NCBI GenBank assembly: GCA_043823065.1 | Contig: JBDRBB010000008.1 | Location: forward strand, 639 to 64,638 | Origin: Pseudomonadota bacterium | Lineage (GTDB): Bacteria > UBA10199 > 2-02-FULL-44-16 > DYJF01 | Direction of reading: 5' to 3' | Length of the DNA stretch: 64,000 nt | Part shown: positions 22,459 to 33,209 of the stretch, piece after piece | How the letters are laid out: each line of letters opens with the position of its first letter | Position numbering within the stretch: position 1 is the stretch's first letter | The notes under the pieces: model-generated | Told to the model about the DNA's origin: nothing | Databases searched by the model: none | Seen by the model: the letters and a program-made list of their open reading frames with translations, nothing else | Program-made: the position numbers and the translations under genes

Positions 22459-24588
22459 GTGAGTAAAGTTATGCAAATTACTTTAAATGGAAAAAAAGTT
22501 GAATGTCAGGCAGGGGAAACAATTTTGCAGGTGGCCAAAAGAAACGGCATTGAGATTCCCACGCTTTGTTATCAGGAAGAACTTAAACCTTATGGCTCTT
22601 GTTTTATTTGTGTGGTGGAAGTTAAAGGTTTAGCGCGTTTAGTTCCTTCCTGCGCCACTTTAGTGACAGAGGGCATGGAGGTGGAAACTCATAGTGAAAA
22701 AGTAAAAGCATCGCGCAAAGTATGTATTGAACTTTTACTTTCTGATCATGTTGGAGATTGTCGCGCACCTTGTAGTGTAAAATGCCCAGCTGGAATTGAT
22801 ATCCCAGGTTTTGTTTCTCTTCTAGCTCATAGCAGCGAAGCTGAAGCAATTAAGTTAATCAAAGAAGCCTTGCCTTTGCCAGCAAGTTTGGGCCGGGTGT
22901 GCCCCCGTCCTTGCGAAACAGAATGCAGGCGCGCTTGTGTGGATGATGCAGTATCCATTTGTTTTTTGAAACGTTATATTGCGGACAAAGATATGGCTTC
23001 GCCAAATCCCTATGTAGCTACTCCAGGTAAGCCCACTGGTAAAAAAGTAGCAATAGTTGGCGCTGGCCCAGCAGGACTTTCAGCTGCTTTTTATTTAAGA
23101 AAAGATGGCCACGCAGTGACTATCTATGATGCTCACGAGGAAGCAGGTGGCATGTTGCGTTACGGTATTCCAGCTTATCGCCTGCCGCGCGACGTTCTGG
23201 CCAAAGAAGTTGAACTGATTGAAAAAATGGATGTAAAATTCCAGATGCAGCAACGATTGGGCAAGGAATTTACCTTAAAACAATTACAAAATGATTATGA
23301 TGCGGTGTTTTTAGCTATTGGCGCCCAATCAGCTTCAGATATGCGGGTAGAAGGTGAAAAAGAAGGTGGTGCAATTTCCGGAATTGCCTTTTTAGAAGAC
23401 ATTGCCAAAAACAAACCTGTTAATATTGGCCATGATGTATATGTGGTTGGTGGAGGTAATACAGCTATTGATGCTGCTAGAACTTCTTTGAGAATAGGCG
23501 CTAAAAATGTTTCTATTCTTTATCGTCGTTCGCGTGAAGAAATGCCAGCCAACAATTTTGAAGTAGAAGCAGCTTTGCACGAAGGAGTGAAAATTGAATT
23601 TTTAACTTTGCCCACCAAGATGGAAAAAAACACAGATGGAATAACTCTAACTTGCGTGCGCATGCAGTTAGGTGAACCAGATGCTTCTGGTCGCAGGCGT
23701 CCCATTCCTGTTGAAGGTTCAGAATTTAAGGTTAAAGCTTCAGCTGTAATTTCAGCTATTGGTCAAAATGTTGATCCAGCTTGTCTGGATAATGAACCCT
23801 TTGATATTAAGCTTACCAAGTGGAACAGTTTAGATGTGAATGAGCAAACTTTTGAAACCAATCTGTCTGGAGTATTTGCAGGAGGTGATTGTGTATCAGG
23901 CGCTGATATTGCAGTGACCGCAATTGCTGCTGGCAAGAAAGTGGCAGCTTCAATTGATCAATTTTTAAAAGGGGAAAAAATAACCGGCATTCCCAAACAA
24001 TATTTACATGCTATGGGTGAAAAAAAAGAAGATACACCCCAAGAACAATTTATTGGTGTTAAAAAACAAGAAGTAGCGCGTATGCCAGAGTTGCCAGCAG
24101 AAAGTAGGGTAAAGAGTTTTGAAGAAGTAGAAACTGGTTTTATTTTTGAACAAGCCAAAAAAGAAGCTGAACGTTGTTTATCTTGCGGTTGTCGTTCTTT
24201 TGAATCCTGCACCATGCGCAAATTGGCTGACGAGTATGGTTGTTTGCCAGATCGTTTTGCCGGAGAAAAACGTCATTTCTTTGTTGATGATTCTCATCCT
24301 CAAATTAGATATGAAGCGCACAAATGTATTTTGTGCGGATCTTGCATCAGGGTTTGTTCAGAAGTAAAAAATCTAGATGCCTTGGGGTTTGTCAAACGCG
24401 GTTTCTCAACTCAGATGAAACCAATTTTTGAAAAACCTTGGAAAGAATCAACCTGTGATTCTTGCATGAAGTGCGTGCCCATGTGTCCAACCGGAGCGAT
24501 TTCATTAAAAACAACTCCAGCTGAAGAAGTGTTAGCTTTACGTGAAAAAGGCGTCGACGCCAGCAAAGACGTTCCAAAAGATACTTAA
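22459..24588 (+). CDS. NuoG-like Fe-S scaffold with inserted GltD/NfnL-like FAD/NADP(H) domain (StnC/Nfn-BfuA-like)
   Basis: IPTLC...CFICVVE 2Fe-2S; GRVCPRPCETEC; GAGPAG; GGGNTAID; YRRSREEMPA; CILCGSCIRVC and CDSCMKCVPMCP; start may be ATG 22471. Confidence 0.88.
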   Translation: MSKVMQITLNGKKVECQAGETILQVAKRNGIEIPTLCYQEELKPYGSCFICVVEVKGLARLVPSCATLVTEGMEVETHSEKVKASRKVCIELLLSDHVGDCRAPCSVKCPAGIDIPGFVSLLAHSSEAEAIKLIKEALPLPASLGRVCPRPCETECRRACVDDAVSICFLKRYIADKDMASPNPYVATPGKPTGKKVAIVGAGPAGLSAAFYLRKDGHAVTIYDAHEEAGGMLRYGIPAYRLPRDVLAKEVELIEKMDVKFQMQQRLGKEFTLKQLQNDYDAVFLAIGAQSASDMRVEGEKEGGAISGIAFLEDIAKNKPVNIGHDVYVVGGGNTAIDAARTSLRIGAKNVSILYRRSREEMPANNFEVEAALHEGVKIEFLTLPTKMEKNTDGITLTCVRMQLGEPDASGRRRPIPVEGSEFKVKASAVISAIGQNVDPACLDNEPFDIKLTKWNSLDVNEQTFETNLSGVFAGGDCVSGADIAVTAIAAGKKVAASIDQFLKGEKITGIPKQYLHAMGEKKEDTPQEQFIGVKKQEVARMPELPAESRVKSFEEVETGFIFEQAKKEAERCLSCGCRSFESCTMRKLADEYGCLPDRFAGEKRHFFVDDSHPQIRYEAHKCILCGSCIRVCSEVKNLDALGFVKRGFSTQMKPIFEKPWKESTCDSCMKCVPMCPTGAISLKTTPAEEVLALREKGVDASKDVPKDT

Positions 24589-24596
24589 TTATATCC

Positions 24597-24803
24597 CCGC
24601 TCACCCTGAGCTTGTCGAAGGGTGGAGTACTCGTCATTCCTGTATCTTTTTGTCATTCCCGCGAAAGCGGGAATCCCATGCGCTCATTACTGTCATTCTG
24701 AGCAAAGCGAAGAATCCCAAGTAAAAACCCCTGCAGCAGGAAAGGTGTTTGAAGCAGCTGCACTCCACCAAGTATCCGTTCATCCTGAGCTTGTCGAAGG
24801 ATG
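24597..24803. repeat. Mosaic cluster of different REP-like units
   Basis: CACCCTGAGCTTGTCGAAGGGTG; GTCATTCCCGCGAAAGCGGGAATCC; GTCATTCTGAGCAAAGCGAAGAATCC; CATCCTGAGCTTGTCGAAGGATG. Confidence 0.8.
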
Positions 24804-24812
24804 CACCATAAA

Positions 24813-24938
24813 GGGGCATTGCTCTCGTGGCTCTCGGCCGACTTTTTTTATTTCCCTATGAACCTTACGGCGTATTCCTATTTTTCGTCATACCGGGAAA
24901 GTAAAAAAAGCCGCCCTACGCCACTAGCGCAATACCCA
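24813..24938. repeat. Long imperfect hairpin element
   Basis: GGGCATTGC..GTGGC..CTTTTTTTATTTCCC.TATGA pairs with TCATA..GGGAAAGTAAAAAAAG..GCCAC..GCAATACCC. Confidence 0.65.
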
Positions 24939-25042
24939 AGGTGTCATCTAATTAAGGATTATCTTTAACTTGTCGAATTAACTAACAAACAAAGTTCTAG
25001 ACTCAAATAACGCTAGTTGAGTATAGTGGTGAACAAATTTAT

Positions 25043-25606
25043 ATGTTTGCATCAATTATTATATATCTAATTCAAGAACTCTTAACTATGGTTAAGATAA
25101 TATGGAGAGATCCTATGGAATCTCAAATTCTAATTTCATTTATTAGTGCTTTTTTTGGCGCCGGTATTTTACTTTTTTTACAATGGTCCTTTTCAGAACG
25201 AGAGATTCGTCATTTTTGGGAAATAACAGATGATAAAGAATCGCTTCAACATATTATTTATATTTCAAATAATAATAAGCATGCGGCATCTATATTCAAT
25301 CTTGAAGTTGTTACAAGAAATGGAAAAGTGCTTAAAAGAGGAACTACGATGAGTTTGAAGTCTGCCAATGATATGAAGGATATATTTGCAAAAGTTGTTT
25401 TTTTAGAACCTTATCACGTATACCCCTTATGGATAGAGGTATATCGTAAGCATAACGGCAATAAAAATCCGAATGGCATAGAAAACAATGATGATATTAA
25501 ATTGTTAAGGTTCGAGTCCAATGTATGCGGAAGTGGAGCAAGAGGTGTCATTTCAAGGCTTTTCAAGAATAAGATAAGAAAGTATGAAATTAAAAAGCCG
25601 GACTAA
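25043..25606 (+). CDS. Hypothetical membrane-anchored protein (island cargo)
   Basis: Very AT-rich ORF with one TM (ILISFISAFFGAGILLFLQW); start uncertain (may be 25088 or 25115). Confidence 0.6.
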   Translation: MFASIIIYLIQELLTMVKIIWRDPMESQILISFISAFFGAGILLFLQWSFSEREIRHFWEITDDKESLQHIIYISNNNKHAASIFNLEVVTRNGKVLKRGTTMSLKSANDMKDIFAKVVFLEPYHVYPLWIEVYRKHNGNKNPNGIENNDDIKLLRFESNVCGSGARGVISRLFKNKIRKYEIKKPD

Positions 25607-25666
25607 TGAATCAATTTGTTTCGCTATCGCTGTTTTTTATGTTGTTCAATTAAAAACAAAATTTGG

Positions 25667-25704
25667 TGGACACGATACTCAATTGAAATAAGTATCGTGT
25701 CCCC
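25667..25704. repeat. Palindrome GGACACGATACT...AGTATCGTGTCC; half copy at 30481-30500
   Basis: ggacacgatactcaattgaaataagtatcgtgtcccc; ggggacgcgatacttatttc at 30481. Confidence 0.7.
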
Positions 25705-25774
25705 GGAATTTTTCCTGCAGGAATTTTTCAATGAACCATATTTAATTTGAAAGTTATCTGAGAATATTGAAGTT

Positions 25775-26224
25775 TTATATTTTAAACCCCACAAACGTTC
25801 CACCACCAGACATAGAATTACCTGAAAATGTGTTTCCACCAACAGTTAAAGAGGAGTAGCCACCATACATTTTTAGACCAATAGGGCGAAAATCTAGTTT
25901 TTCTACGATTGCAGAATATTGGTCTATCATTTTTACAGACAAAATTAATTCTTCGGAAATCATTACATTTAAAGAACCAGATTCTTCATAAACTTTTACA
26001 GCTGGATGCTTTGAGATAGATTCTTCAACAATAGTGACAAATTGATTTTTCTTTGAGTCTGCAAGAGCTTGAAGCCAAATCTTTGGTTTTTCACCTTTAC
26101 CTATTAAGATTGGTAAAACATCGCCTATAGCAACCAGGTTGCCACCACCGGAAAGCACATTGCTACAAATTGTTAATGTATTAAAAGGAATATAATTTTT
26201 AGGTATGTTTTTACGCGTTATCAT
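25775..26224 (-). CDS. Hypothetical protein (island cargo)
   Basis: 149 aa, beta-rich; 4-bp ATGA/TAA-type overlap with the upstream gene. Confidence 0.75.
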   Translation of the reverse strand: MITRKNIPKNYIPFNTLTICSNVLSGGGNLVAIGDVLPILIGKGEKPKIWLQALADSKKNQFVTIVEESISKHPAVKVYEESGSLNVMISEELILSVKMIDQYSAIVEKLDFRPIGLKMYGGYSSLTVGGNTFSGNSMSGGGTFVGFKI

Positions 26225-26919
26225 TTATTTTGTTCCTTAAATGCATGTCTTTTTGTTGGAGCTTCCTTAAAATGTTTTTCAATTTTTTTCATTACTTTTT
26301 TACGATCGTTTGGAAGACAAAGTCCGATTATATATAGGACTGCCGATAAAGCGATACCTATAACCAATGTTACTTTATCTCCCTTATTTATGTTTGCGAT
26401 ATTTGAGTAACCCTTAGCTAGAAGTTGAAGACCAAAACCAAAAGTTGTTAATGCGATACTAATAGCTAAGGTAAAGGTAATTGGTCTGCCACGCTTTATT
26501 CGTTCAAAGTCTATTTCGCGAAGAGAGTAATCTTTTTGCCATGTGCCAATATCCGCACCTGTCAACAAATCAGGGACAAATTGAGTTTCTGTTATCTCTC
26601 TATTACGCACGTTTTTTTCACTTTCTTCACTTGGTGCAATTATTTGGCAAGCTTTGAGAGCTCCAATTATTATGGTATGTTGTTCATAAAAAACATCCGG
26701 GCCGTATCCCGACATTAAACTTAAATTAAAGTTTTTAAACAATTTGTATGGTGTGCTATCTCTACCATAGTTTTTAATTATGAAGTCTTCAACTTGGGCA
26801 ATCCAGGCTTGGAAGTCAGCAGATGGACTACTGTATATGCCCGTGTTTCCTTGTCGGCTATTATTTTTGAAAGTAAAAGTGTATCCAGTGCTAATTAATT
26901 GTTCAATTATTTCTTTCAT
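26221..26919 (-). CDS. Hypothetical protein with helical N-terminal domain and two C-terminal TM helices
   Basis: 232-aa ORF; TMs ITFTLAISIALTTFGFGLQLL and VTLVIGIALSAVLYIIGLCL. Confidence 0.75.
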   Translation of the reverse strand: MKEIIEQLISTGYTFTFKNNSRQGNTGIYSSPSADFQAWIAQVEDFIIKNYGRDSTPYKLFKNFNLSLMSGYGPDVFYEQHTIIIGALKACQIIAPSEESEKNVRNREITETQFVPDLLTGADIGTWQKDYSLREIDFERIKRGRPITFTLAISIALTTFGFGLQLLAKGYSNIANINKGDKVTLVIGIALSAVLYIIGLCLPNDRKKVMKKIEKHFKEAPTKRHAFKEQNK

Positions 26920-26929
26920 TTTAATTTCG

Positions 26930-26950
26930 TAACCACTGGTAACGGAGCAA
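26930..26950. repeat. Island spacer repeat, copy A (partial)
   Basis: TAACCACTGGTAACGGAGCAA, about 11 bp upstream of ATG 26919. Confidence 0.75.
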
Positions 26951-26967
26951 GTTAGTTTATTAATGAT

Positions 26968-27375
26968 TTAAATATTATATAAAGCAAATATTCCTAACAG
27001 CAATCCAATTTCACCCAATATAACTGATAATACTGCTAATCTGGCAGAAACTCGGTAAGAGGGATCAGATGCACGCCATGCCCACTTTAATTCACCCAAT
27101 AACCCCTTTTGTTTAAGTTTAACATCTACTTCTTCGTTGGGTTTAACATTTAGTTTGCTTCTGGTAAATTCGTCAAGTATGAGTCTTTCATCGCCATATT
27201 CTCGGCAACCACGAACAATAACCAGAGTTTGTTGATCCCCAATCTTCAATTCACAAATAGTACAATCTTTTATCGACACTCCCTTAGCATCTTTTCGATA
27301 TTTCTCTGGTATTCTTGCAATATCTTTTAGTCTATCTTCTTTGTGTGTTTTAGAAATTTTTAATTTTATATCAAT
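26968..27375 (-). CDS. Hypothetical protein, possible double-psi-barrel-like domain plus C-terminal TM
   Basis: Frame open from 27381 (IDIKLKISKTHKEDRLKDIARIP...LILDEFTRSKLNVKPNEEVDV); ATT start after GGTGG, or 5'-truncated; ORF track gives GTG 27279. Confidence 0.6.
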   Translation of the reverse strand: MDIKLKISKTHKEDRLKDIARIPEKYRKDAKGVSIKDCTICELKIGDQQTLVIVRGCREYGDERLILDEFTRSKLNVKPNEEVDVKLKQKGLLGELKWAWRASDPSYRVSARLAVLSVILGEIGLLLGIFALYNI

Positions 27376-27382
27376 TAATTTT

Positions 27383-27480
27383 TAACCACCGGTCACGGAG
27401 CAAAAAGGCACGGAGCAAATTGCTTTTACGCCGTGCGAAATACGCTCTAAAACGATATGGCGTATTGGGGTTGATGTCAA
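27383..27480. repeat. Island spacer repeat, copy B, with minus-strand sigma70 promoter
   Basis: TAACCACCGGTCACGGAGCAA...GCTTTTACGCCGTGCGAAATACG...AAACGATATGGCGTATTGGGGTTGATGTCAA; TTGACA-N17-TATCGT on the minus strand. Confidence 0.85.
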
Positions 27481-27484
27481 AAAA

Positions 27485-28489
27485 TCAGGTTAAAATATAT
27501 TTACCTGATTTTTTGCTTCCAATTCGTTTCACTAACTTGGCTTGAATAAGTGGTTTAAGTAAATCTAGGGCGCCTTGTTTTGAGATATTTAGTTCCGACC
27601 ATATCTCTTTTGGTGCCATGCTCTTTTTCTCTCGTAACAAATTCAATAATTGTTCTTGTTTAGGAGTCAAAACAAGTGTTTTTTTGTGGCTGCTTAATCG
27701 TAGCTGATCTATTCGTTGTAAAACGTTTTCTAGGGTTAAATGTAACACTTCTGCACAATACTCAAGCCAACCTGTTAAATCATCATCTTGTGTTCTAACT
27801 TGGTCTAGGGCCTTATAATAACGAGGTCTGTTTTCCCAATAAGTTTCATCAATTGAAAATATATGATGGGTATCAAAACCGCGTCTATAAAGTTCCCATA
27901 AAGCAAGTGCTCGACCAACACGCCCATTTCCATCTGCAAAAGGATGAATTGCTTCAAATCGATAATGAAGAATTGAAGAAGAAATAACTGGTGACCACTT
28001 CTGACTTTGATCATTCCACCATTCAATTAAATCTTTCATTAGCTTTGGAACTTCTTTTGCTTTTGGTGGTAAGTAGTGGCCAACTCGCACTTCTATTTTA
28101 CGATATTCGCCAGAACTGCCTTGATCCATTACACCAGTTGAGATAATTATATGAAGTTTTAGCAAATCTTTATCTGTTATCTTTTTAATTTCCGTAGCTT
28201 TCTCAATTAATCTGAGAGCTGCAAAATAATTTAAAACTTCCTGTTTTGATCTATTTGTTCTTGTTAGTAGCTGCCCCCCTTGTTCCAATATTTTAACCTC
28301 TTGAAGTGTTAAAGGATTTCCTTCAATCGCGGTTGAAGCATGGGTGTTTTTAACTCTAGCATCTTTTTGAAGGGCAGGAATCCAAGGAACTTGAACTGTA
28401 GCAGCCAATATTTGTTCTCTAAATGAAGCAATTTCTTCAATCATTTTAAGTAAATGAGCAGTAATTGTGAATTTTGGTTTGTAAGCCAT
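27485..28489 (-). CDS. Fic-family protein with C-terminal winged HTH
   Basis: STAIEGN, HPFADGNGRVGR active-site motif, C-terminal HTH. Confidence 0.95.
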   Translation of the reverse strand: MAYKPKFTITAHLLKMIEEIASFREQILAATVQVPWIPALQKDARVKNTHASTAIEGNPLTLQEVKILEQGGQLLTRTNRSKQEVLNYFAALRLIEKATEIKKITDKDLLKLHIIISTGVMDQGSSGEYRKIEVRVGHYLPPKAKEVPKLMKDLIEWWNDQSQKWSPVISSSILHYRFEAIHPFADGNGRVGRALALWELYRRGFDTHHIFSIDETYWENRPRYYKALDQVRTQDDDLTGWLEYCAEVLHLTLENVLQRIDQLRLSSHKKTLVLTPKQEQLLNLLREKKSMAPKEIWSELNISKQGALDLLKPLIQAKLVKRIGSKKSGKYILT

Positions 28490-28505
28490 ATTTGTTATTT
28501 TACAG

Positions 28506-28550
28506 ATAAGTCAAGTATAAGTCAAGTATAAGTCAAGTTGTTAGTCAAGT
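28506..28550. repeat. 11-bp tandem direct repeats upstream of fic
   Basis: ATAAGTCAAGT x3 plus TTAGTCAAGT. Confidence 0.8.
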
Positions 28551-28634
28551 GGGTGGAAGCTAGTTTTCGTAAAAAAGGGGATGTTTCTCTTTTTGTAAGC
28601 CTTTGAAATTATTAAGGTTTATTTTGCTATTGGA

Positions 28635-28740
28635 TTTTAACGCCGTACGCCGGTCGCTGTACGCCGTATGAAATACGAGCGACTAGCGACTAGATACGGT
28701 TTTTAAACGATATGGCGCAATGGGGTTGATGTCAAGGTTG
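28635..28740. repeat. Island spacer repeat, copy C, with minus-strand sigma70 promoter
   Basis: ACGCCGTACGCCGGTCGCTGTACGCCGTATGAAATACG...TAAACGATATGGCGCAATGGGGTTGATGTCAAGGTTG. Confidence 0.85.
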
Positions 28741-28947
28741 GGAAGTTGCTGGTAAAATTTGGGCTCTATCTATATTAATCTTTCAAAACCATTGCTAAAC
28801 AAAAAGCGTTTTAAAAATATTGCAGTAATACTCTTGAACTTGTCCAATTGGCGTCAAAGCTGATAAACTTTTATATTGCTTTACATACTTAGCTCTTCTA
28901 AAGGTTTTACTCTAAATAAACATTACAAACATTATTAGAGGTATTAT

Positions 28948-29265
28948 ATGGCATGGTTATTATTGCTAGGTGCTGGAGTATTAGAGGTTGCTTGGCCAAT
29001 TGGTTTTAAATATTCCAATGGATTTACTAAAATATTACCCACCATTCCTACAATGCTTGCTCTTTTACTTAGCTTTTTCTTAATGTCGCAAGCTGCTAAA
29101 ACTTTGCCAATTGGAACTGTCTATGCAATTTGGACGGGTATTGGTGTATTAGGCACAGCTATTTGTGGAATTTTATTGTTTCAAGAATCTTATAATTTAT
29201 TTCGCATGGCATGCATCTTTTTGATTTTCTTGGGTATAGCTGGCCTCAAGTTTACAACTAAGTAA
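28948..29265 (+). CDS. SMR-family efflux transporter (SugE/Gdx-like)
   Basis: MAWLLLLGAGVLEVAWPIGFKYSNGFT, LPIGTVYAIWTGIG; four TMs. Confidence 0.9.
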   Translation: MAWLLLLGAGVLEVAWPIGFKYSNGFTKILPTIPTMLALLLSFFLMSQAAKTLPIGTVYAIWTGIGVLGTAICGILLFQESYNLFRMACIFLIFLGIAGLKFTTK

Positions 29266-29299
29266 AAGGATTCCATTCAAACACGCCAACATTGTTTTC
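29258..29299 (-). pseudogene. 3'-end remnant of a homolog of the 31153..31578 gene
   Basis: ENNVGVFEWNPFT* versus DGNVGVFEWNPLG* at the end of 31153..31578. Confidence 0.7.
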
Positions 29300-29300
29300 T

Positions 29301-29400
29301 TAACCACCGGTCAAGGAGCAAATTGCTTTTACGCCGTACGCCGGTCGCTAGAGATAAACAGTATGGCGCAATGTGCTTTTTACTACATATTCTTTTACGA
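29301..29400. repeat. Island spacer repeat, copy D
   Basis: TAACCACCGGTCAAGGAGCAAATTGCTTTTACGCCGTACGCCGGTCGCT...TATGGCGCAATG, then TTTTACTACATA shared with copy E. Confidence 0.85.
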
Positions 29401-29437
29401 AAAAAATATTGGAGCAAATTGATTTTTTTATGCTTTG

Positions 29438-29860
29438 TTACAATTCAATTTTCAACGCCTCTTTTAATGCTCCAGCAAATTCATCTGCTTTTTTGGCAAA
29501 CTGTTTTACCAAGGAAATATATTGATCCATGGTTATGCCAAAATAATCATGCACACTGCCGTTTCTAGCATCCAACGCATTGGCCCAAAATTCCGGATCA
29601 TCAATCCATCCAAATTTTATCGCCTCTTGAATGGCTGGCCTGGGACCAAAAGCTTCCGCACCTTGATAATCGGCCGCTGTTTTCATTACTTTCCAACAAT
29701 ATTCAAAACAGACTTCAAATCTTTTTACCACCGCATCTGTGCAAATCTCATTTAGTTCAGATTTATTTTTATTAGCTTCCAAAAGTTCCAAAGATTCTTT
29801 TAATTTGCTTAAAGCTTCTTTAAAAGTTGCCATAGTTTTTTTTACATTGTTGATGGTCAT
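29438..29860 (-). CDS. HEPN protein (HI0074-type nucleotidyltransferase substrate-binding family), putative toxin
   Basis: DAVVKRFEVCFEYCWKVMK and ARNGSVHDY (Rx4H). Confidence 0.9.
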   Translation of the reverse strand: MTINNVKKTMATFKEALSKLKESLELLEANKNKSELNEICTDAVVKRFEVCFEYCWKVMKTAADYQGAEAFGPRPAIQEAIKFGWIDDPEFWANALDARNGSVHDYFGITMDQYISLVKQFAKKADEFAGALKEALKIEL

Positions 29861-30408
29861 GCTATCTCCTTTAATTTTATGGAATCTGGATATAGTTTAG
29901 TAATTCGTATACTGCTTGTTGCAATTGAATTTAAAAACCAAGCTGGTGCTTCATTTAAACACACCAAATCAATGCGATAGGGAAAAGCCAGATCAATTAG
30001 CTCTTGCTTGAAAAGAGAAAAACCTTTTGGTCGCTTGTCTAGGCGAAAATACAGAGCAAAATCCCAATCGCTTTTAATGCCTTTTTTACCCCTAGCCCGA
30101 GAACCAATTAAAAAAAGATCTGCTTGATTTTTTTGAGCATATTCTTCAAATTTTAGAGCTATTTTTTTTATTTTTGGTGGAGAATCTTGAATAATTGATT
30201 CAAAATCTGTTGTTTTGGTTGTTATTTCCTCAAAATCAACTCCAAGTTCAGCCAAAACCTTTTCAAATGAAGTGGAAAAAATAGATTTACCAGAAAACAT
30301 ATTATATAATGATTGTCTTGATACACCACACTTATGGGCAAATTCAGTGATATTTCCCCCCTTTGCCCTTAAATGCGATTCGAACTTATTCTTATCTAAT
30401 AACAACAT
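29857..30408 (-). CDS. HTH-MNT fusion (minimal nucleotidyltransferase antitoxin)
   Basis: N-terminal HTH (ITEFAHKCGVSRQSLY); GSRARG..SDWD and IDLV NTase motifs; 4-bp overlap with the HEPN gene. Confidence 0.88.
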   Translation of the reverse strand: MLLLDKNKFESHLRAKGGNITEFAHKCGVSRQSLYNMFSGKSIFSTSFEKVLAELGVDFEEITTKTTDFESIIQDSPPKIKKIALKFEEYAQKNQADLFLIGSRARGKKGIKSDWDFALYFRLDKRPKGFSLFKQELIDLAFPYRIDLVCLNEAPAWFLNSIATSSIRITKLYPDSIKLKEIA

Positions 30409-30502
30409 ATTTGTATTGTATTACATATAAGACGTTTTGTCTATAAATTAAGAAGTAAGGTCTTGTCTTTTAAAAATTATGGGGACGCGATACTTATTTC
30501 AG

Positions 30503-30610
30503 AACCACTGGTTTTCTTATTTTACTACATACGCTTTTACGCCGTGCGCTGTACGCCGTACGAAATACGTTTTTAAACGATATGGCGCAATGGGGTTGAT
30601 ATCAAGGTTG
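30503..30610. repeat. Island spacer repeat, copy E
   Basis: AACCACTGGT...GCTTTTACGCCGTGCGCTGTACGCCGTACGAAATACG...TAAACGATATGGCGCAATGGGGTTGATATCAAGGTTG. Confidence 0.85.
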
Positions 30611-30640
30611 AGAAAATAGTGAGATAAGATGCTATTATTT

Positions 30641-30854
30641 AAAATTCACGGAGGGGGTAAGGTGTTTGAAGCAGGCGCACGAAACCGGGCTATTCATCAT
30701 GAAAATATTGCTACTTGCTTTATGAGTTAGAAGATTTCCTCTGTCATCATCTAACTCATGCAAGCAGTCAATATTTTCATTCTTCATACGCCCTTATTTC
30801 GTAAGCGCGCGCCTAAATTGCTTCAAACACCTTCTTACCCCCTCCGTGAATTTT
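30641..30854. mobile_element. MITE-like 214-bp nested palindrome
   Basis: AAAATTCACGGAGGGGGTAAGGTGTTTGAAGCA ... TGCTTCAAACACCTTCTTACCCCCTCCGTGAATTTT; inner stem ATGAAAATATTG...ATGAGTTAGA/TCTAACTCAT...CAATATTTTCAT. Confidence 0.65.
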
Positions 30855-30943
30855 GCAGTACCGAAAGCCGCTTAATGAACTGGATAATCAGGGTTGCTTT
30901 GCTGTGCCAGAAATGACAAAGCAGAATCGTCAGACGGAGCAAG

Positions 30944-31148
30944 CTGTTTACCAGATAGGTTTGACGGAGAAAAGGGTTTGTTCTGAAGTAAAAAACCCTG
31001 GAACCAGTCAACTTGCGATGCTTGCCTCAAATGCGTGCCAATGTGCCCAACTGGTGCGATTTCTCTAAAAGTAACCCCTGCTGAGGAAGTCTTGGCCTTG
31101 CGCCAAAAAGGCGTCGATGCCAGCAAGGATGTTCCAAAAGGGGGCTAA
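30944..31148 (+). pseudogene. Diverged, internally deleted 3' remnant of the 22459..24588 oxidoreductase gene
   Basis: KPWNQSTCDACLKCVPMCPTGAISLKVTPAEEVLALRQKGVDASKDVPKGG* is 43/51 identical to the intact C-terminus; short blocks match about 24241-24269 and 24349-24371. Confidence 0.9.
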
Positions 31149-31152
31149 GAGA

Positions 31153-31578
31153 TTAACCAAGCGGGTTCCATTCAAACACGCCCACATTGCCATCTTGATC
31201 AATAATGGCGATTTCTCTTTGGCGATTTCCGCTAAAACTTCCCAAATAAACTTGCACGCCTAAAGAAGAAGTGTTGCGCAAGCTTGGTTTGCGGTTAGAA
31301 ACTGTAGTGGTTCTAAATAAGGTTTGAGGTTGATTTGTTAAAGAATTTTCTGCAAACACCCGCACACTATCAAAACCAAATTTTCTCAAATTTGTTTCAA
31401 CTCTAATATAATGATCTTGATGAAAAGTTGTGGGATTGGCCGAAGCTCTATGAACTATTTGCTGTTCTTCATGGCAGGTGCGCAGATCTTGAGCATTTTT
31501 TATTTGCAAATCTACTGGTTGCCCAGCTTGCTCAATCTCTAGTCTTGTAAATGGCCTTAATATCTTTTCCCAGACCAT
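31153..31578 (-). CDS. Hypothetical protein
   Basis: 141 aa with AGGAG SD; C-terminus duplicated at 29258-29299. Confidence 0.75.
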   Translation of the reverse strand: MVWEKILRPFTRLEIEQAGQPVDLQIKNAQDLRTCHEEQQIVHRASANPTTFHQDHYIRVETNLRKFGFDSVRVFAENSLTNQPQTLFRTTTVSNRKPSLRNTSSLGVQVYLGSFSGNRQREIAIIDQDGNVGVFEWNPLG

Positions 31579-31634
31579 GGTTGCTCCTGCTTAGCCAAGT
31601 AATTACTAAAGATTGGACACTTAGCAAGTGTTTT

Positions 31635-33209
31635 TTATTCCGTTATATTTATTGTTTTAAAAATAGGCACTGGGTTGGTTACAATTACTCCTAATATGCC
31701 ACCAGTAGTAGTTGGATAATAGACAATTTGGGTTGGCGCTACGTTGGCAGTATAGGAGGTGGTGGTTAGGCTGGAGGTGATCATATCAACATTAACAATG
31801 CTATTGGCGCTGTTATCAGCAATATAGATCTCATTTCCAGCAGGGTTGGTCGCAATACCTTGAGGCGCGGTGCCAACTTCTAAGCCTGTAGCTTCAATCC
31901 TTGGTCCTAAAGTGGTGTTGGTTTCAGCAAGCATAATCAAGTCTGTGCCGTTATTATCAGTCATGAGCGCTAAATCATCATTATACCAGCTTAAATCAAA
32001 TGGAGAAATTTCTGGATCTAAATCTCCAGATCTGGGAAATAGGGTTGAGTCAGGGTCGCGCAATTCAAAAGAGATTAAAGGAGCGCCAATAAAAGATCTA
32101 AAATGAGCAAAATGCACAACTCTTTCGCCTCCTGCATATTCTGCAAACAGAACCATTTTGGCATAGTTTAAGGTGGTTTGGATTATGTCAAGTTTGGTGG
32201 CGCGCACTGGCATTGGATCACTAGTTAAAGAACAATTTGGATAATCTTCATCATCTGGAGTTGGCAAACAATTGCTCCGGGTAGGGTCATTTAGACTGTA
32301 AGGAGCTCCAGAATTGATTTCATAAATATCCAGAAAACCAAAATTTTCTGTTTCAAAATCATGGGCCACAGCCACAAAATCAGCAGTAGTTAAAGGCACA
32401 TCAGCAAGTTCAGCAATAGCTACATCATGAATATCAATCTCAAAGGCATCAGAGCTGGTTGCCGCTATATTATCAGCTAGGGCTGCTAAATCATACCAAT
32501 GCAAAGTGTCATTGGTGGTGTCTAAAATTGCTGCATGATCGAAACTAGAATGCACAGCAATTCTATCAAACAAGACTCCAGCAAAAGAGGCACGCTGATA
32601 AACTAGGCCAGTGGCCATATTGATTTCAATGATTTCACTGTTAGTGCCGTCATTTGCCACAATTACCGCAAGCCCATTATCCCAGTCCATTGCCACATCT
32701 TGAGGAATCATAGTGCTTGAAGAAGAAAGAACTTGGTTATTGCTATTGACAGTTGTGCTATAGGCTTCACTTTCTTCACCAGTGCCAGGATCAATATAGG
32801 TCACGGTAATTGTGTCATTTAGGTTGGCATTAATACTGGTGGAAAAATAGCCAGTAGTATCAGTGGTGGTGGTGACCAAGGTCTCGCCAGCTGCTTTCAA
32901 GGATTTGCCAGCCAAATTAGCTTGGGCAGCAGCTGTAGTATTAGTGACCTTTACCGTGGCATTGCCTACTGGTAGATTGTTAGCATAGATATAGCCATAT
33001 ACCAGGGATTTGCCGCTGGCATCAGGAGAGGTTACCGTGATATAGCCAGCAGTTGGTGCGGGCAAAGAAATAGGAGAGCTACCGGTAGTACCTCCTCCTG
33101 AACCTGCGCCACCGCCGCAATTGCTTACTGCCACAATACAAAGAGGTAGTATCGTGACCATGGTAATTGTTCGGAAATATTTGCCTATTTTTGAGTTAAT
33201 TATCTTCAT
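31635..33209 (-). CDS. Lipoprotein with Ig/carboxypeptidase-regulatory-like N-terminal region and probable beta-propeller
   Basis: GAGGTG SD at ATG 33209; signal ending VAVSNC followed by a Gly/Ser linker; VGTAPQGIA and PQDVA propeller-like repeats. Confidence 0.75.
   Translation of the reverse strand: MKIINSKIGKYFRTITMVTILPLCIVAVSNCGGGAGSGGGTTGSSPISLPAPTAGYITVTSPDASGKSLVYGYIYANNLPVGNATVKVTNTTAAAQANLAGKSLKAAGETLVTTTTDTTGYFSTSINANLNDTITVTYIDPGTGEESEAYSTTVNSNNQVLSSSSTMIPQDVAMDWDNGLAVIVANDGTNSEIIEINMATGLVYQRASFAGVLFDRIAVHSSFDHAAILDTTNDTLHWYDLAALADNIAATSSDAFEIDIHDVAIAELADVPLTTADFVAVAHDFETENFGFLDIYEINSGAPYSLNDPTRSNCLPTPDDEDYPNCSLTSDPMPVRATKLDIIQTTLNYAKMVLFAEYAGGERVVHFAHFRSFIGAPLISFELRDPDSTLFPRSGDLDPEISPFDLSWYNDDLALMTDNNGTDLIMLAETNTTLGPRIEATGLEVGTAPQGIATNPAGNEIYIADNSANSIVNVDMITSSLTTTSYTANVAPTQIVYYPTTTGGILGVIVTNPVPIFKTINITE

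Follow-up and report, generated by a model that had tools for sequence, protein, structure and literature searches.

The islet between the two anchor genes

The stretch analysed here (the window) comprises 64,000 nt, positions 639 to 64,638 of the forward strand of contig JBDRBB010000008.1, and belongs to a 1.89-Mb metagenome bin of 27 contigs from a Pseudomonadota bacterium (GCA_043823065.1). It was compared with 92 other genomes of the phylum and with metagenome contigs from four runs (X1-X4), which stem from at least two studies, and the bin itself may derive from one of these. The window contains an AT-rich islet of ~6.5 kb (about 24405 to about 30990) that is foreign in composition, with a GC content of 0.32-0.36 against 0.39-0.45 in the flanks. 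The left anchor is the gene of a 709-aa Fe-S/FAD oxidoreductase (22459..24588, plus strand; Pfam Pyr_redox_2, Fer2_4 and Fer4_20), and the right anchor is p141 (31153..31578, minus strand), which has an orthologue in the relative G002. The initial annotation had described unrelated cargo separated by five same-orientation copies of a spacer, called here units A to E. The five copies were recovered, starting at 26931, 27384, 28635, 29302 (core D had been placed at 29301) and 30503, and the cargo assignments (an orphan pair, an orphan TM protein, Fic, SMR and HEPN-MNT) were upheld. The units fill five of the seven intergenic gaps of the islet, and these five are consecutive.

The oxidoreductase gene is followed by a cluster of REP-like palindromes of genome-wide families (24589..25042), whose short matches number more than 100 and fall on most contigs; contig depth over the four runs was 337-1205 in the 24613-24883 bin. 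Next comes p187, an orphan membrane protein (25043..25606, plus strand) with no Pfam, PADLOC or NCBIfam match and unnamed clusters only in Atlas. An inverted-repeat pair with 27-nt arms (palindrome P, 25658..25712) separates it from the convergent p149 (25775-26224), which overlaps p232 (26221-26919) by 4 nt in an orphan minus-strand pair (25775..26919); p232 gave only a weak PDC-S35 match and p149 no recombinase-like lead. Beyond unit A (26931..26957) lies p135 (26968..27375, minus strand), with a CDC48_N-like domain (PF02359, E = 5.6e-4, below cut-off) and, towards the C terminus, a hydrophobic stretch taken for a TM helix. Its one homologue (43% identity) begins with a methionine that aligns with an ATA codon (27369-27367), where no canonical start codon is found. 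Unit B (27384..27480) adjoins the gene of a SoFic-like Fic protein with a C-terminal winged helix (27485..28489, minus strand; Pfam Fic 9e-21, PADLOC SoFic 1e-59). A hairpin with 19-nt arms covers the Fic stop codon (27478..27515) and is likely a bidirectional terminator, and a predicted proximal promoter lies within four copies of the 11-mer ATAAGTCAAGT (28497..28550, minus strand), whose number varies between runs (X2 and X4 lack 11 nt at 28506).

Unit C (28635..28744) precedes a SugE-type SMR transporter (28948..29265, plus strand; Pfam Multi_Drug_Res 1e-26; NCBIfam SugE 8e-34, below cut-off). Next on the minus strand are the final 13 codons of a p141 copy that has diverged (29259..29300); this remnant is cut at the core of unit D (29302..29380). 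The next block is a minus-strand pair (29438..30408) of HTH-MNT (29857-30408) and HEPN (29438-29860), of which an 86%-identical allele co-occurs in the runs, where several strains coexist. An inverted copy (27/30) of the right arm of palindrome P (P', 30472..30501) abuts the core of unit E (30503..30619). Further right comes a MITE-like element (30641..30854, ~214 bp) whose 21-nt terminal inverted repeats are perfect and of which the genome has 11 other copies of at least 140 nt. It is followed by a decayed remnant of the oxidoreductase 3' end (30855..31140, plus strand); the part at 30991-31140 keeps the frame and shares 80% identity with 24431-24580.

Make-up, promoters and distribution of the spacer

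The spacer is modular, as first described, and reaches about 115 nt rather than about 100 bp. Its modules are all present and unevenly shared: the AACCACYGGT core is carried by A, B, D and E only, and the promoter-like right module by B, C and E only. Unit A consists of the core and GGAGCAAG only (AACCACTGGT plus AACGGAGCAAG). Unit B has the core, GGAGCAA twice, one heptamer unit and the right module; C has heptamers and the right module, without core or GGAGCAA; D has the core, GGAGCAA, heptamers and a degenerate right module; and E has the core, heptamers and the right module, without GGAGCAA. The likeness does not end at AACCAC, as had been thought, and extends about 7 nt further (ATTTCNN-AACCAC). 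The core had also been placed 8-11 nt from the next start in A and B, which is true of A (11 nt from the p232 ATG) and not of B, where the canonical start codon is missing. The core forms a partial palindrome in A and E (ACCA-N-TGGT), a symmetry that B and D break (ACCGGTGGT). By our reading of the aligned sequences, the 21 nt of core plus GGAGCAA agree at 18/21 positions between A and B and at 20/21 between B and D. The right modules of C and E are identical at 35/36 positions and those of B and C at 31/36, and that of D matches C and E at 22-23/36. The left part thus links B with D, the middle D with C and the right part C with E, a mosaic that is expected from recombination among copies.

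On the minus strand, the right module reads TTGACA-N17-TATCGT in B (27480..27452) and C (28735..28707) and TTGATA-N17-TATCGT in E (30605..30577), in agreement with the initial annotation. These three units carry a predicted sigma-70-like promoter aimed at the minus-strand cargo, and we infer promoter activity from the motif. The proposal that the spacer supplies the promoter stands for these units only; A has none, and Fic and MNT-HEPN have predicted promoters of their own (TTGACT-N17-TAAAAT, 28525..28497, and TAGACA-N17-TACAAT, 30443..30415), 7-8 nt from their start codons. Past the Fic terminator hairpin, the 109-nt gap contains a single sigma-70-like site on the minus strand, that of unit B, which is most likely the promoter source for a p135-p232-p149 transcription unit. 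Units C and E would be added distal promoters upstream of the self-sufficient Fic and MNT-HEPN genes. No conserved structure was found in the putative leader (0 predicted pairs).

The full left and right modules are confined to the islet locus in a profile search of the genome, in which the four best right-module matches had E <= 1e-12. Off-locus matches cover the heptamer part only, apart from one left-module match (C6:31615-31638, E = 0.033). The repetition exceeds chance: each of AAACGATATGGCG and GGGGTTGATRTCAA occurs three times in the genome, always at this locus, and the core 21 times, four of them here. The spacer was found in none of the 92 other genomes of the phylum, and the public collections scanned yielded no further case. 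An ordinary dispersed REP, a reading considered from the outset, was rejected because the full modules are not dispersed in the genome, and a MITE because the units share no terminal inverted repeat and have no full copies elsewhere in it. The heptamers had been taken for hairpin units of the spacer; they are present, and belong to a genome-wide class of period-7 arrays. Indeed, period 7 is the commonest tandem period in the genome (133 rows with at least 3 copies, versus 65 for period 6), 21 such arrays are of the ACG/CGT type, and paired inverted forms are frequent genome-wide. Since this module is of a resident kind, the spacer probably evolved in the islet's lineage or a close one.

Proposed build-up of the islet

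In G002 the orthologues of the two anchor genes converge, their stop codons being 9 nt apart, and no spacer is present; in the window, 12 nt separate the oxidoreductase remnant from p141. Oxidoreductase orthologues in relatives are 61-78% identical. Over 52 codons, 35 sites separate the two versions of the oxidoreductase end; 25 are third positions, and the codon changes are 21 synonymous versus 8 non-synonymous. This mainly synonymous difference indicates that both were functional genes while they diverged in separate lineages. In a related strain, a contig (X4, also X1) joins gene body and remnant directly and matches both at about 89% (329/368 and 133/149). The remnant is therefore probably the native end, and the present last ~160 nt of the oxidoreductase gene probably arrived with the islet. 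In the p141-like remnant, nine residues (NVGVFEWNP) are identical to intact p141, and its best non-self match in the genome has E = 1e-4. As the initial annotation noted, unit D adjoins a gene remnant; since core D lies exactly at the cut of this foreign 3'-end copy, at least one unit marks a recombination junction. Diverged copies of both anchor 3' ends, with mostly synonymous differences in the copy tested, point to an islet built by recombination with DNA of related lineages.

We propose, with somewhat less than even confidence, that the spacer is a lineage-specific promoter/leader segment copied during the stepwise recombinational build-up of the islet. The islet would have entered the junction between the convergent oxidoreductase and p141 genes and grown by recombination with DNA of related lineages, in two or more steps. 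A homology-driven process (Campbell-type or similar) is most likely, since a diverged duplicate of an anchor 3' end remains from each step. On the minus strand the unit runs from a sigma-70-like promoter through a genome-typical heptamer array, TTGCTCC, ACCRGTGGTT and a short A-rich stretch to a start codon. Its copying would have accompanied the gain or exchange of gene blocks, and general recombination between copies would have produced the mosaic. We infer this mechanism from sequence, and the proposed number and order of events are one of several that fit. A precedent for a copied leader segment exists in the same genome, where three sigma-54 promoter/leader copies (C23:82059-90769; 101-140 nt, 92-95% identical) carry TGGCACG-N4-TTGC and precede three different genes. 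General recombination does not predict that four copies share a sharply defined left end, at a core that is partly palindromic, and the occurrence of units in five consecutive gaps between unrelated cargo looks organised.

Alternatively, selection may have maintained the units as duplicated regulatory modules, whose shared promoter, with the core as operator, would place unrelated stress and defence genes under one regulator. The identical −10 box of B, C and E, the identical −35 box of B and C, the partial palindrome of the core, the two HTH proteins encoded in the islet (MNT with HTH_3, Fic with its winged helix) and the triplicated sigma-54 leader are consistent with this. However, A lacks the promoter and C the core, Fic and MNT are served by separate promoters with repeats or palindromes that resemble operators of these genes, the putative leader has no conserved structure, and the gene remnant at D is left unexplained; we consider this scenario unlikely.

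The initial annotation proposed a possibly undescribed cassette capture and expression system. Here the units, or their TTGCTCC-N3-ACCRGTGGTT ends, would be where an undescribed site-specific recombinase acts in trans on an integron-like array, with E as the head site bearing the promoter and each minus-strand cassette ending in a short site before the next ORF. The left ends of A, B, D and E are indeed co-oriented and sharp, p135 is flanked by the 21-nt direct repeats of A and B, the distance from the core to the following ORF is 11 nt at A and 8-14 nt at B, a gene remnant is truncated at core D, the E promoter points into the array, and the cargo (TA pair, Fic, SMR, orphans) is typical of cassette arrays. 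On the other hand, a domain scan of 57 ORFs (13 + 44 ORF references) found no integrase or transposase in the window, as had been stated, and no orphan looks like a recombinase. The genome encodes three tyrosine recombinases, one serine recombinase and six Y1 transposases (Y1_Tnp), none with a unit-like sequence nearby. C has no core, the core palindrome is broken in B and D, and no core-to-core joints occur among the metagenome contigs listed. As for the spacer as recombination junction, D at the cut remnant speaks for it, but the sole strain-level breakpoint seen lies within HEPN, not at a core. Lacking a second instance in the phylum or the public collections scanned, this system seems distinctly unlikely, and nothing in evidence shows a new gene-capture machine over ordinary recombination.

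Decayed ends of a non-autonomous cargo-carrying transposable element, moved for example by the Y1 (IS200-like or RAYT-like) transposases of this genome, are improbable. The six Y1_Tnp genes, the wealth of REP-like and MITE elements, the strict co-orientation of the copies and the TCAA at the end of the right module of B, which we take to resemble an IS608-type end, would fit; yet the units share no hairpin or terminal inverted repeat, no full copy exists elsewhere in the genome and no Y1 gene lies in the window. That the mosaic is an assembly artefact of strains mixed at repeats is hardly credible: the bin is fragmented and several strains coexist, but the runs come from at least two studies, one possibly the source of the bin, and independent contigs in them bridge five junctions with 0 differences (p232-A, X3 26431-26968; p135-B, X3 27127-27410; Fic-C, X2 28410-28784; SMR-remnant-D-HEPN, X1 28931-29438 and X3 29065-29625; MITE-remnant, X3 30801-31097).

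Comparison with known systems

CALIN are described as integron cassette arrays without a nearby integrase, and attC sites as carrying R'' and R' boxes (PMC4889954). The islet resembles them in its co-oriented repeats between unrelated, mostly small cargo including a toxin-antitoxin pair, in the lack of a nearby integrase and in ORFs that begin a few bases after some sites. The units are nevertheless not attC, as initially claimed: they have no R''/R' boxes and no shared hairpin, the genome has no integron integrase, and the units are alike in sequence rather than structure, three of them carrying a predicted promoter. In Acinetobacter plasmids, Xer-dependent dif modules bound toxin-antitoxin or resistance genes by short sites, with no recombinase of their own. 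A dif-like site was rejected, since no unit contains an XerD-arm-like motif; moreover, all units are co-oriented, not alternating. CIME-like elements arise by tandem accretion of att-flanked integrative elements without their own integrase. As in these, direct repeats part accessory blocks at one site beside the 3' end of a conserved gene, of which a displaced copy is kept. However, the blocks measure only 0.45-1.9 kb, the repeat does not derive from the target gene end, the empty G002 site has no unit and no cognate integrase was found.

In the minimal mobile elements of Neisseria, different genes are exchanged between conserved flanks by recombination. Correia repeats are described as short intergenic repeats that can supply promoters (PMC2649163). 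Gene exchange between conserved flanks and intergenic repeats that are possibly promoters are features of our islet as well, although Correia elements are dispersed with inverted ends and the unit, which has none, is confined to one locus. Finally, the short tandemly repeated heptamers (STRR) of cyanobacteria differ in heptamer sequence, and only the middle module of the spacer is of that kind; this module and the genome-wide excess of period 7 are nonetheless reminiscent of them.

Anatomy and distribution of the units

All five copies of the spacer were recovered in the window, in the same orientation, within the islet, an AT-rich stretch (about 24405-30990) between the oxidoreductase gene (22459..24588, plus strand) and p141 (31153..31578, minus strand). 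The anatomy of five co-oriented copies proposed in the initial annotation was largely right; as a feature, the array is both real and unusual. The units are built from a left module (core AACCACYGGT and GGAGCAA), a middle module of heptamers and a right module that resembles a minus-strand promoter. Unit A (26931-26957) is the core AACCACTGGT plus AACGGAGCAAG and nothing more; unit B (27384-27480) carries the core, two GGAGCAA motifs, one heptamer unit and the right module; unit C (28635-28744) has neither core nor GGAGCAA; unit D (29302-29380) consists of the left and middle modules, its right module being degenerate; and unit E (30503-30619) combines core, heptamers and right module without GGAGCAA. 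The right modules of C and E agree at 35 of 36 positions, and those of B and C at 31 of 36. The left end is sharp in A, B, D and E, ATTTCNN-AACCACYGGT being common to all four, and the palindrome ACCA-N-TGGT is intact in A and E and broken in B and D. The islet has seven intergenic gaps, and units occupy five consecutive ones. A small plus-strand ORF in the units (GGAG-N7-TTG in B and D) was rejected, its frame and length both being unconserved.

The whole modules are confined to this locus. In the 1.89-Mb host genome, AAACGATATGGCG and GGGGTTGATRTCAA occur three times each, always at the islet, where 4 of the 21 occurrences of the 10-nt core are also found. Profile searches of the genome matched only the heptamer part elsewhere, with one exception, a weak left-module match on another host contig (C6:31615-31638, GAACCACTGGTGACGGAGCG, E = 0.033), which is the sole left-module-like match off the locus. 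This match sits in an ORF-poor gap of about 650 nt, with a MITE copy on one side and a 116-aa gene on the other. A core-like match near a Y1 gene (C10:221221) falls inside a coding gene and was rejected. The unit was not found in any of the 92 other genomes searched in a collection of 93 species genomes of the phylum, where the genomes closest to the host belong to other genera. The right-module pattern had no match in the genome contig collection or in the viral contig collection; three metagenome contigs that carry it were set aside as chance matches, being coding DNA of 64% GC with no further similarity to the window. Four single matches to the left-module pattern in the genome collection (Acidobacteriaceae, Verrucomicrobiia, Synechococcus and Bryobacterales) are about the number estimated for chance. 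The plasmid collection gave a sole match, to 59 nt within the Fic gene, from a record that is catalogued as Fusobacterium, and the phage collection gave none. Moreover, the flanks of nine MNT homologues in relatives (41-50% identity) are without unit motifs.

These searches bear out the earlier view that the spacer is not an ordinary genome-wide REP: its left and right modules are found only at the islet, whereas true REP-like palindromes of 26-28 nt, of the TGTCATTCCCGCGAAAGCGGGAATCC and CACCCTGAGCTTGTCGAAGGGTG type, lie at 24589-25042 and throughout the genome, with more than 100 matches. The genome also holds six Y1_Tnp genes. Contig depth over 24613-24883 was 337-1205 across the four metagenome runs, and similar elements are therefore common in those communities. 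At 30641-30854 there is a hairpin MITE (about 214 bp) whose 21-nt terminal inverted repeats are perfect; it has 11 other copies of at least 140 nt in the genome, several of them at contig ends. Between the convergent genes p187 and p149 lies a palindrome with 27-nt arms (25658-25712); an inverted copy of one of its arms (27/30) at 30472-30501 directly abuts core E, and the two bracket 4.76 kb whose cargo is mainly on the minus strand. A motif resembling this palindrome is present in an intergenic region of a relative (G016, about 1504-1530 of locus L018).

The heptamer module is not specific to the locus. Among the tandem periods of the genome, 7 is the most frequent (317 of 1358 rows), and among rows with at least three copies it accounts for 133, against 65 for period 6. 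The genome has 21 period-7 arrays of the ACG/CGT type, found for example directly upstream of two ORFs that, to judge from their N-termini, encode RpoA and L20, with another inside a coding gene; in the window, a period-7 array lies in unit C (28640-28668). Families of this period include AAATTCT, ACCATAG, AATGGTC and ACGCCGT, and the arrays are often paired as two adjacent inverted arrays, as at C24:6027-6094. On the minus strand, the right module reads TTGACA-N17-TATCGT in B and C and TTGATA-N17-TATCGT in E, matching 10, 10 and 9 of the 12 promoter hexamer positions, respectively; these are consensus matches only, in a region that holds 27 such sites against 21.8 expected. The site in unit B probably drives p135-p232-p149, because it is the only one in the 109-nt gap that follows the Fic terminator hairpin. 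Fic and MNT have their own predicted promoters, 8 and 7 nt from the respective start codons; on these predictions both blocks are therefore self-sufficient, and the units stand between blocks rather than within them. Four copies of an 11-mer (28506-28550) overlap the proximal promoter of Fic. Metagenome contigs from two runs (X2 and X4) have one copy fewer, and thus the length of this array varies between strains.

Cargo of the islet and gene remnants

The cargo comprises a SoFic-like, winged-helix Fic protein, an SMR transporter of the SugE type, an HTH-MNT/HEPN pair and the orphans p187, p149, p232 and p135. As initially stated, the window is without an integrase or transposase, no such domain being found in a scan of its 57 ORFs, and Atlas look-ups of p149 and p187 gave no lead resembling a recombinase. 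No tRNA or tmRNA gene was detected in the window, and when 24000-32000 was scanned against Rfam, nothing relevant matched at E <= 1. Across 24800-30600 the GC content is 0.32-0.36, compared with 0.39-0.45 on both sides. A single homologue of p135 (26968-27375) was detectable among 5.8 billion proteins, at 43% identity. Its first Met aligns with an ATA codon (27369-27367), with ATT two codons upstream, so that p135 is without a canonical start where one would be expected; judging from this alignment, the gene may use a rare start codon or may be inactive.

The islet was inserted where two convergent genes meet. In a relative of the same family (G002), the orthologues of the oxidoreductase and of p141 converge, and 9 nt separate the two stop codons. 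Other relatives have different genes downstream of the oxidoreductase, and the 12 ORFs scanned there yielded no TA, Fic or SMR match. At 30855-31140, 12 nt from p141, there is a decayed copy of the 3' end of the oxidoreductase gene, whose final 150 nt remain in frame and match 24431-24580 at 80% identity. The two ends differ at 35 sites over 52 codons, 25 of them third positions, and the codon changes are 21 synonymous versus 8 non-synonymous; it was therefore as functional genes, each in its own lineage, that the two diverged. In a contig from a related strain (X4, also X1), the gene body (329/368) and the remnant (133/149) are matched at about 89% each and are directly joined. Since this contig matches body and remnant equally and joins them, the remnant is probably the original 3' end of the gene, the present one having probably come with the islet. 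Such an arrangement would follow from one crossover with a circular molecule that bore a stretch of homologous DNA. The second remnant (29259-29300) comes from a diverged copy of p141, of which it keeps the final 13 codons, with NVGVFEWNP identical, and is cut off at core D; at the DNA level this match ranks first among the non-self matches in the genome (E = 1e-4), the protein match alone not being significant. Together, the two remnants therefore record two or more recombination events, which probably relied on homology to this junction.

Origin of the repeated units

Our tentative explanation, which falls a little short of being the probable one, is that the units are a lineage-specific promoter/leader segment, duplicated while general recombination brought in blocks or swapped them. 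Part of this exchange would have been with DNA of related strains. The reticulate similarity among the copies fits recombination between copies. A precedent exists in the host genome at C23:82059-90769, where three promoter/leader copies of 101-140 nt, 92-95% identical and carrying TGGCACG-N4-TTGC, precede three different genes (105, 75 and 397 aa) of a radical-SAM cluster. This may be a peptide-modification cluster; it also contains two radical-SAM enzymes, a trypsin-like protease and two hybrid histidine kinases. Around AAA_14/DUF4143 ATPase genes there are local direct repeats (38-140 nt) at C8:112010-115854, where the repeat is on both sides of the gene, and at C6:120373-126618, where the gene adjoins a 315-aa Y1_Tnp gene.

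Alternatively, the islet could be a minimal integron-like system independent of attC and IntI, in which every minus-strand cassette would end, at its 3' side, in a short site TTGCTCC-N3-ACCRGTGGTT and unit E would be the promoter-bearing head site that drives the array; some recombinase, or RecA acting on the units of about 100 nt, would excise circles and reinsert them. The sharp left end common to four units and the remnant junction placed exactly at core D argue for such a system. However, the window contains no recombinase and the collections searched hold no second instance. Moreover, an allele of HEPN/MNT about 86% identical (29599-30107) is present in contigs of three runs (X1, X3 and X4), and the X3 contig stays identical as far as about 29635 and differs from there on. 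The breakpoint at about 29636, the only strain-level one seen, is thus intragenic, inside HEPN and not at a core. We consequently regard this alternative as improbable, and the cassette-capture interpretation of the initial annotation is not supported. Among the best-supported joints listed for the low-depth contigs of the four runs, data whose reach does not extend to rare circles, none was core to core. One joint (24675->30546) belongs to another genomic locus, C20:~4080, where a REP adjoins a heptamer array; two others (24675->30669 and 24939->30801) link the REP cluster to the MITE with a shorter side of 25-30 letters and were taken as other copies of these elements.

If the units mark ordinary recombination, the locus is a tidy example of how a tiny defence/TA islet is assembled at a convergent-gene junction, and it shows promoter-bearing intergenic DNA being copied together with genes; the phylum is an uncultured groundwater/biofilm one, for which the searched collection has just 93 species genomes. 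If the cores were true exchange points, a cassette system without integron integrase or attC would bear on the origin of cassette arrays; the evidence for such exchange points does not reach that claim.

Comparison with known systems

The attC features tested here follow the anatomy given in PMC4889954. A site of this kind has R''/R' boxes at its two ends and is an imperfect palindrome whose fold is a conserved hairpin, marked by R and L boxes, an unpaired spacer and extrahelical bases. Neither strand of 24589-31152 has a pair of R''/R' boxes (RYYYAAC/GTTRRRY) at a spacing of 40-150 nt (0, against 1.85 +/- 2.1 in 200 shuffles). No attC-like hairpin is common to the units, whose single-strand folds differ between copies: for E the z-scores are -0.05 to -0.23 and for D they are 0.08 and -0.17, while B and C have -1.85 to -2.87, their pairing being that of inner heptamer stems. 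The consensus RNA fold of the units has 0 pairs. In the host genome, which is 95.8% complete, the best match to the integron integrase model TIGR02249 reached 83.4 bits, against a cut-off of 265. By these features the spacer is not attC, as first proposed, and the locus differs from an integron or CALIN in its boxes, in its hairpins and in that the genome has no integron integrase.

Xer-dependent dif modules have a dif-like XerC/XerD site at their borders and alternate in orientation, whereas all units here are co-oriented. An 11-nt XerD-arm motif with up to two mismatches was found inside none of the units, the window total being 53 against 62.8 expected. REP and BIME elements are dispersed, high-copy short palindromes, in contrast to left and right modules found at one locus. 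MITE or Correia-like promoter repeats share with the units the hexamers near one end, reading into the neighbouring gene; however, they have terminal inverted repeats and dispersed copies, and we found neither an inverted repeat within the units nor dispersed copies in the genome. In CIME-like accretion, att-flanked integrative modules are each flanked by direct repeats and depend on a cognate integrase, in cis or in trans. The likeness lies in the direct repeats flanking modules; the same att would, however, be expected once at the empty site of relatives, and G002 has only 9 nt there. The host genome encodes three tyrosine recombinases and one serine recombinase, all outside the window, and contains no unit-like sequence elsewhere. 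Finally, the short tandemly repeated heptamers (STRR) of cyanobacteria are period-7 arrays that recur genome-wide, a likeness that is limited to the middle module of the units.
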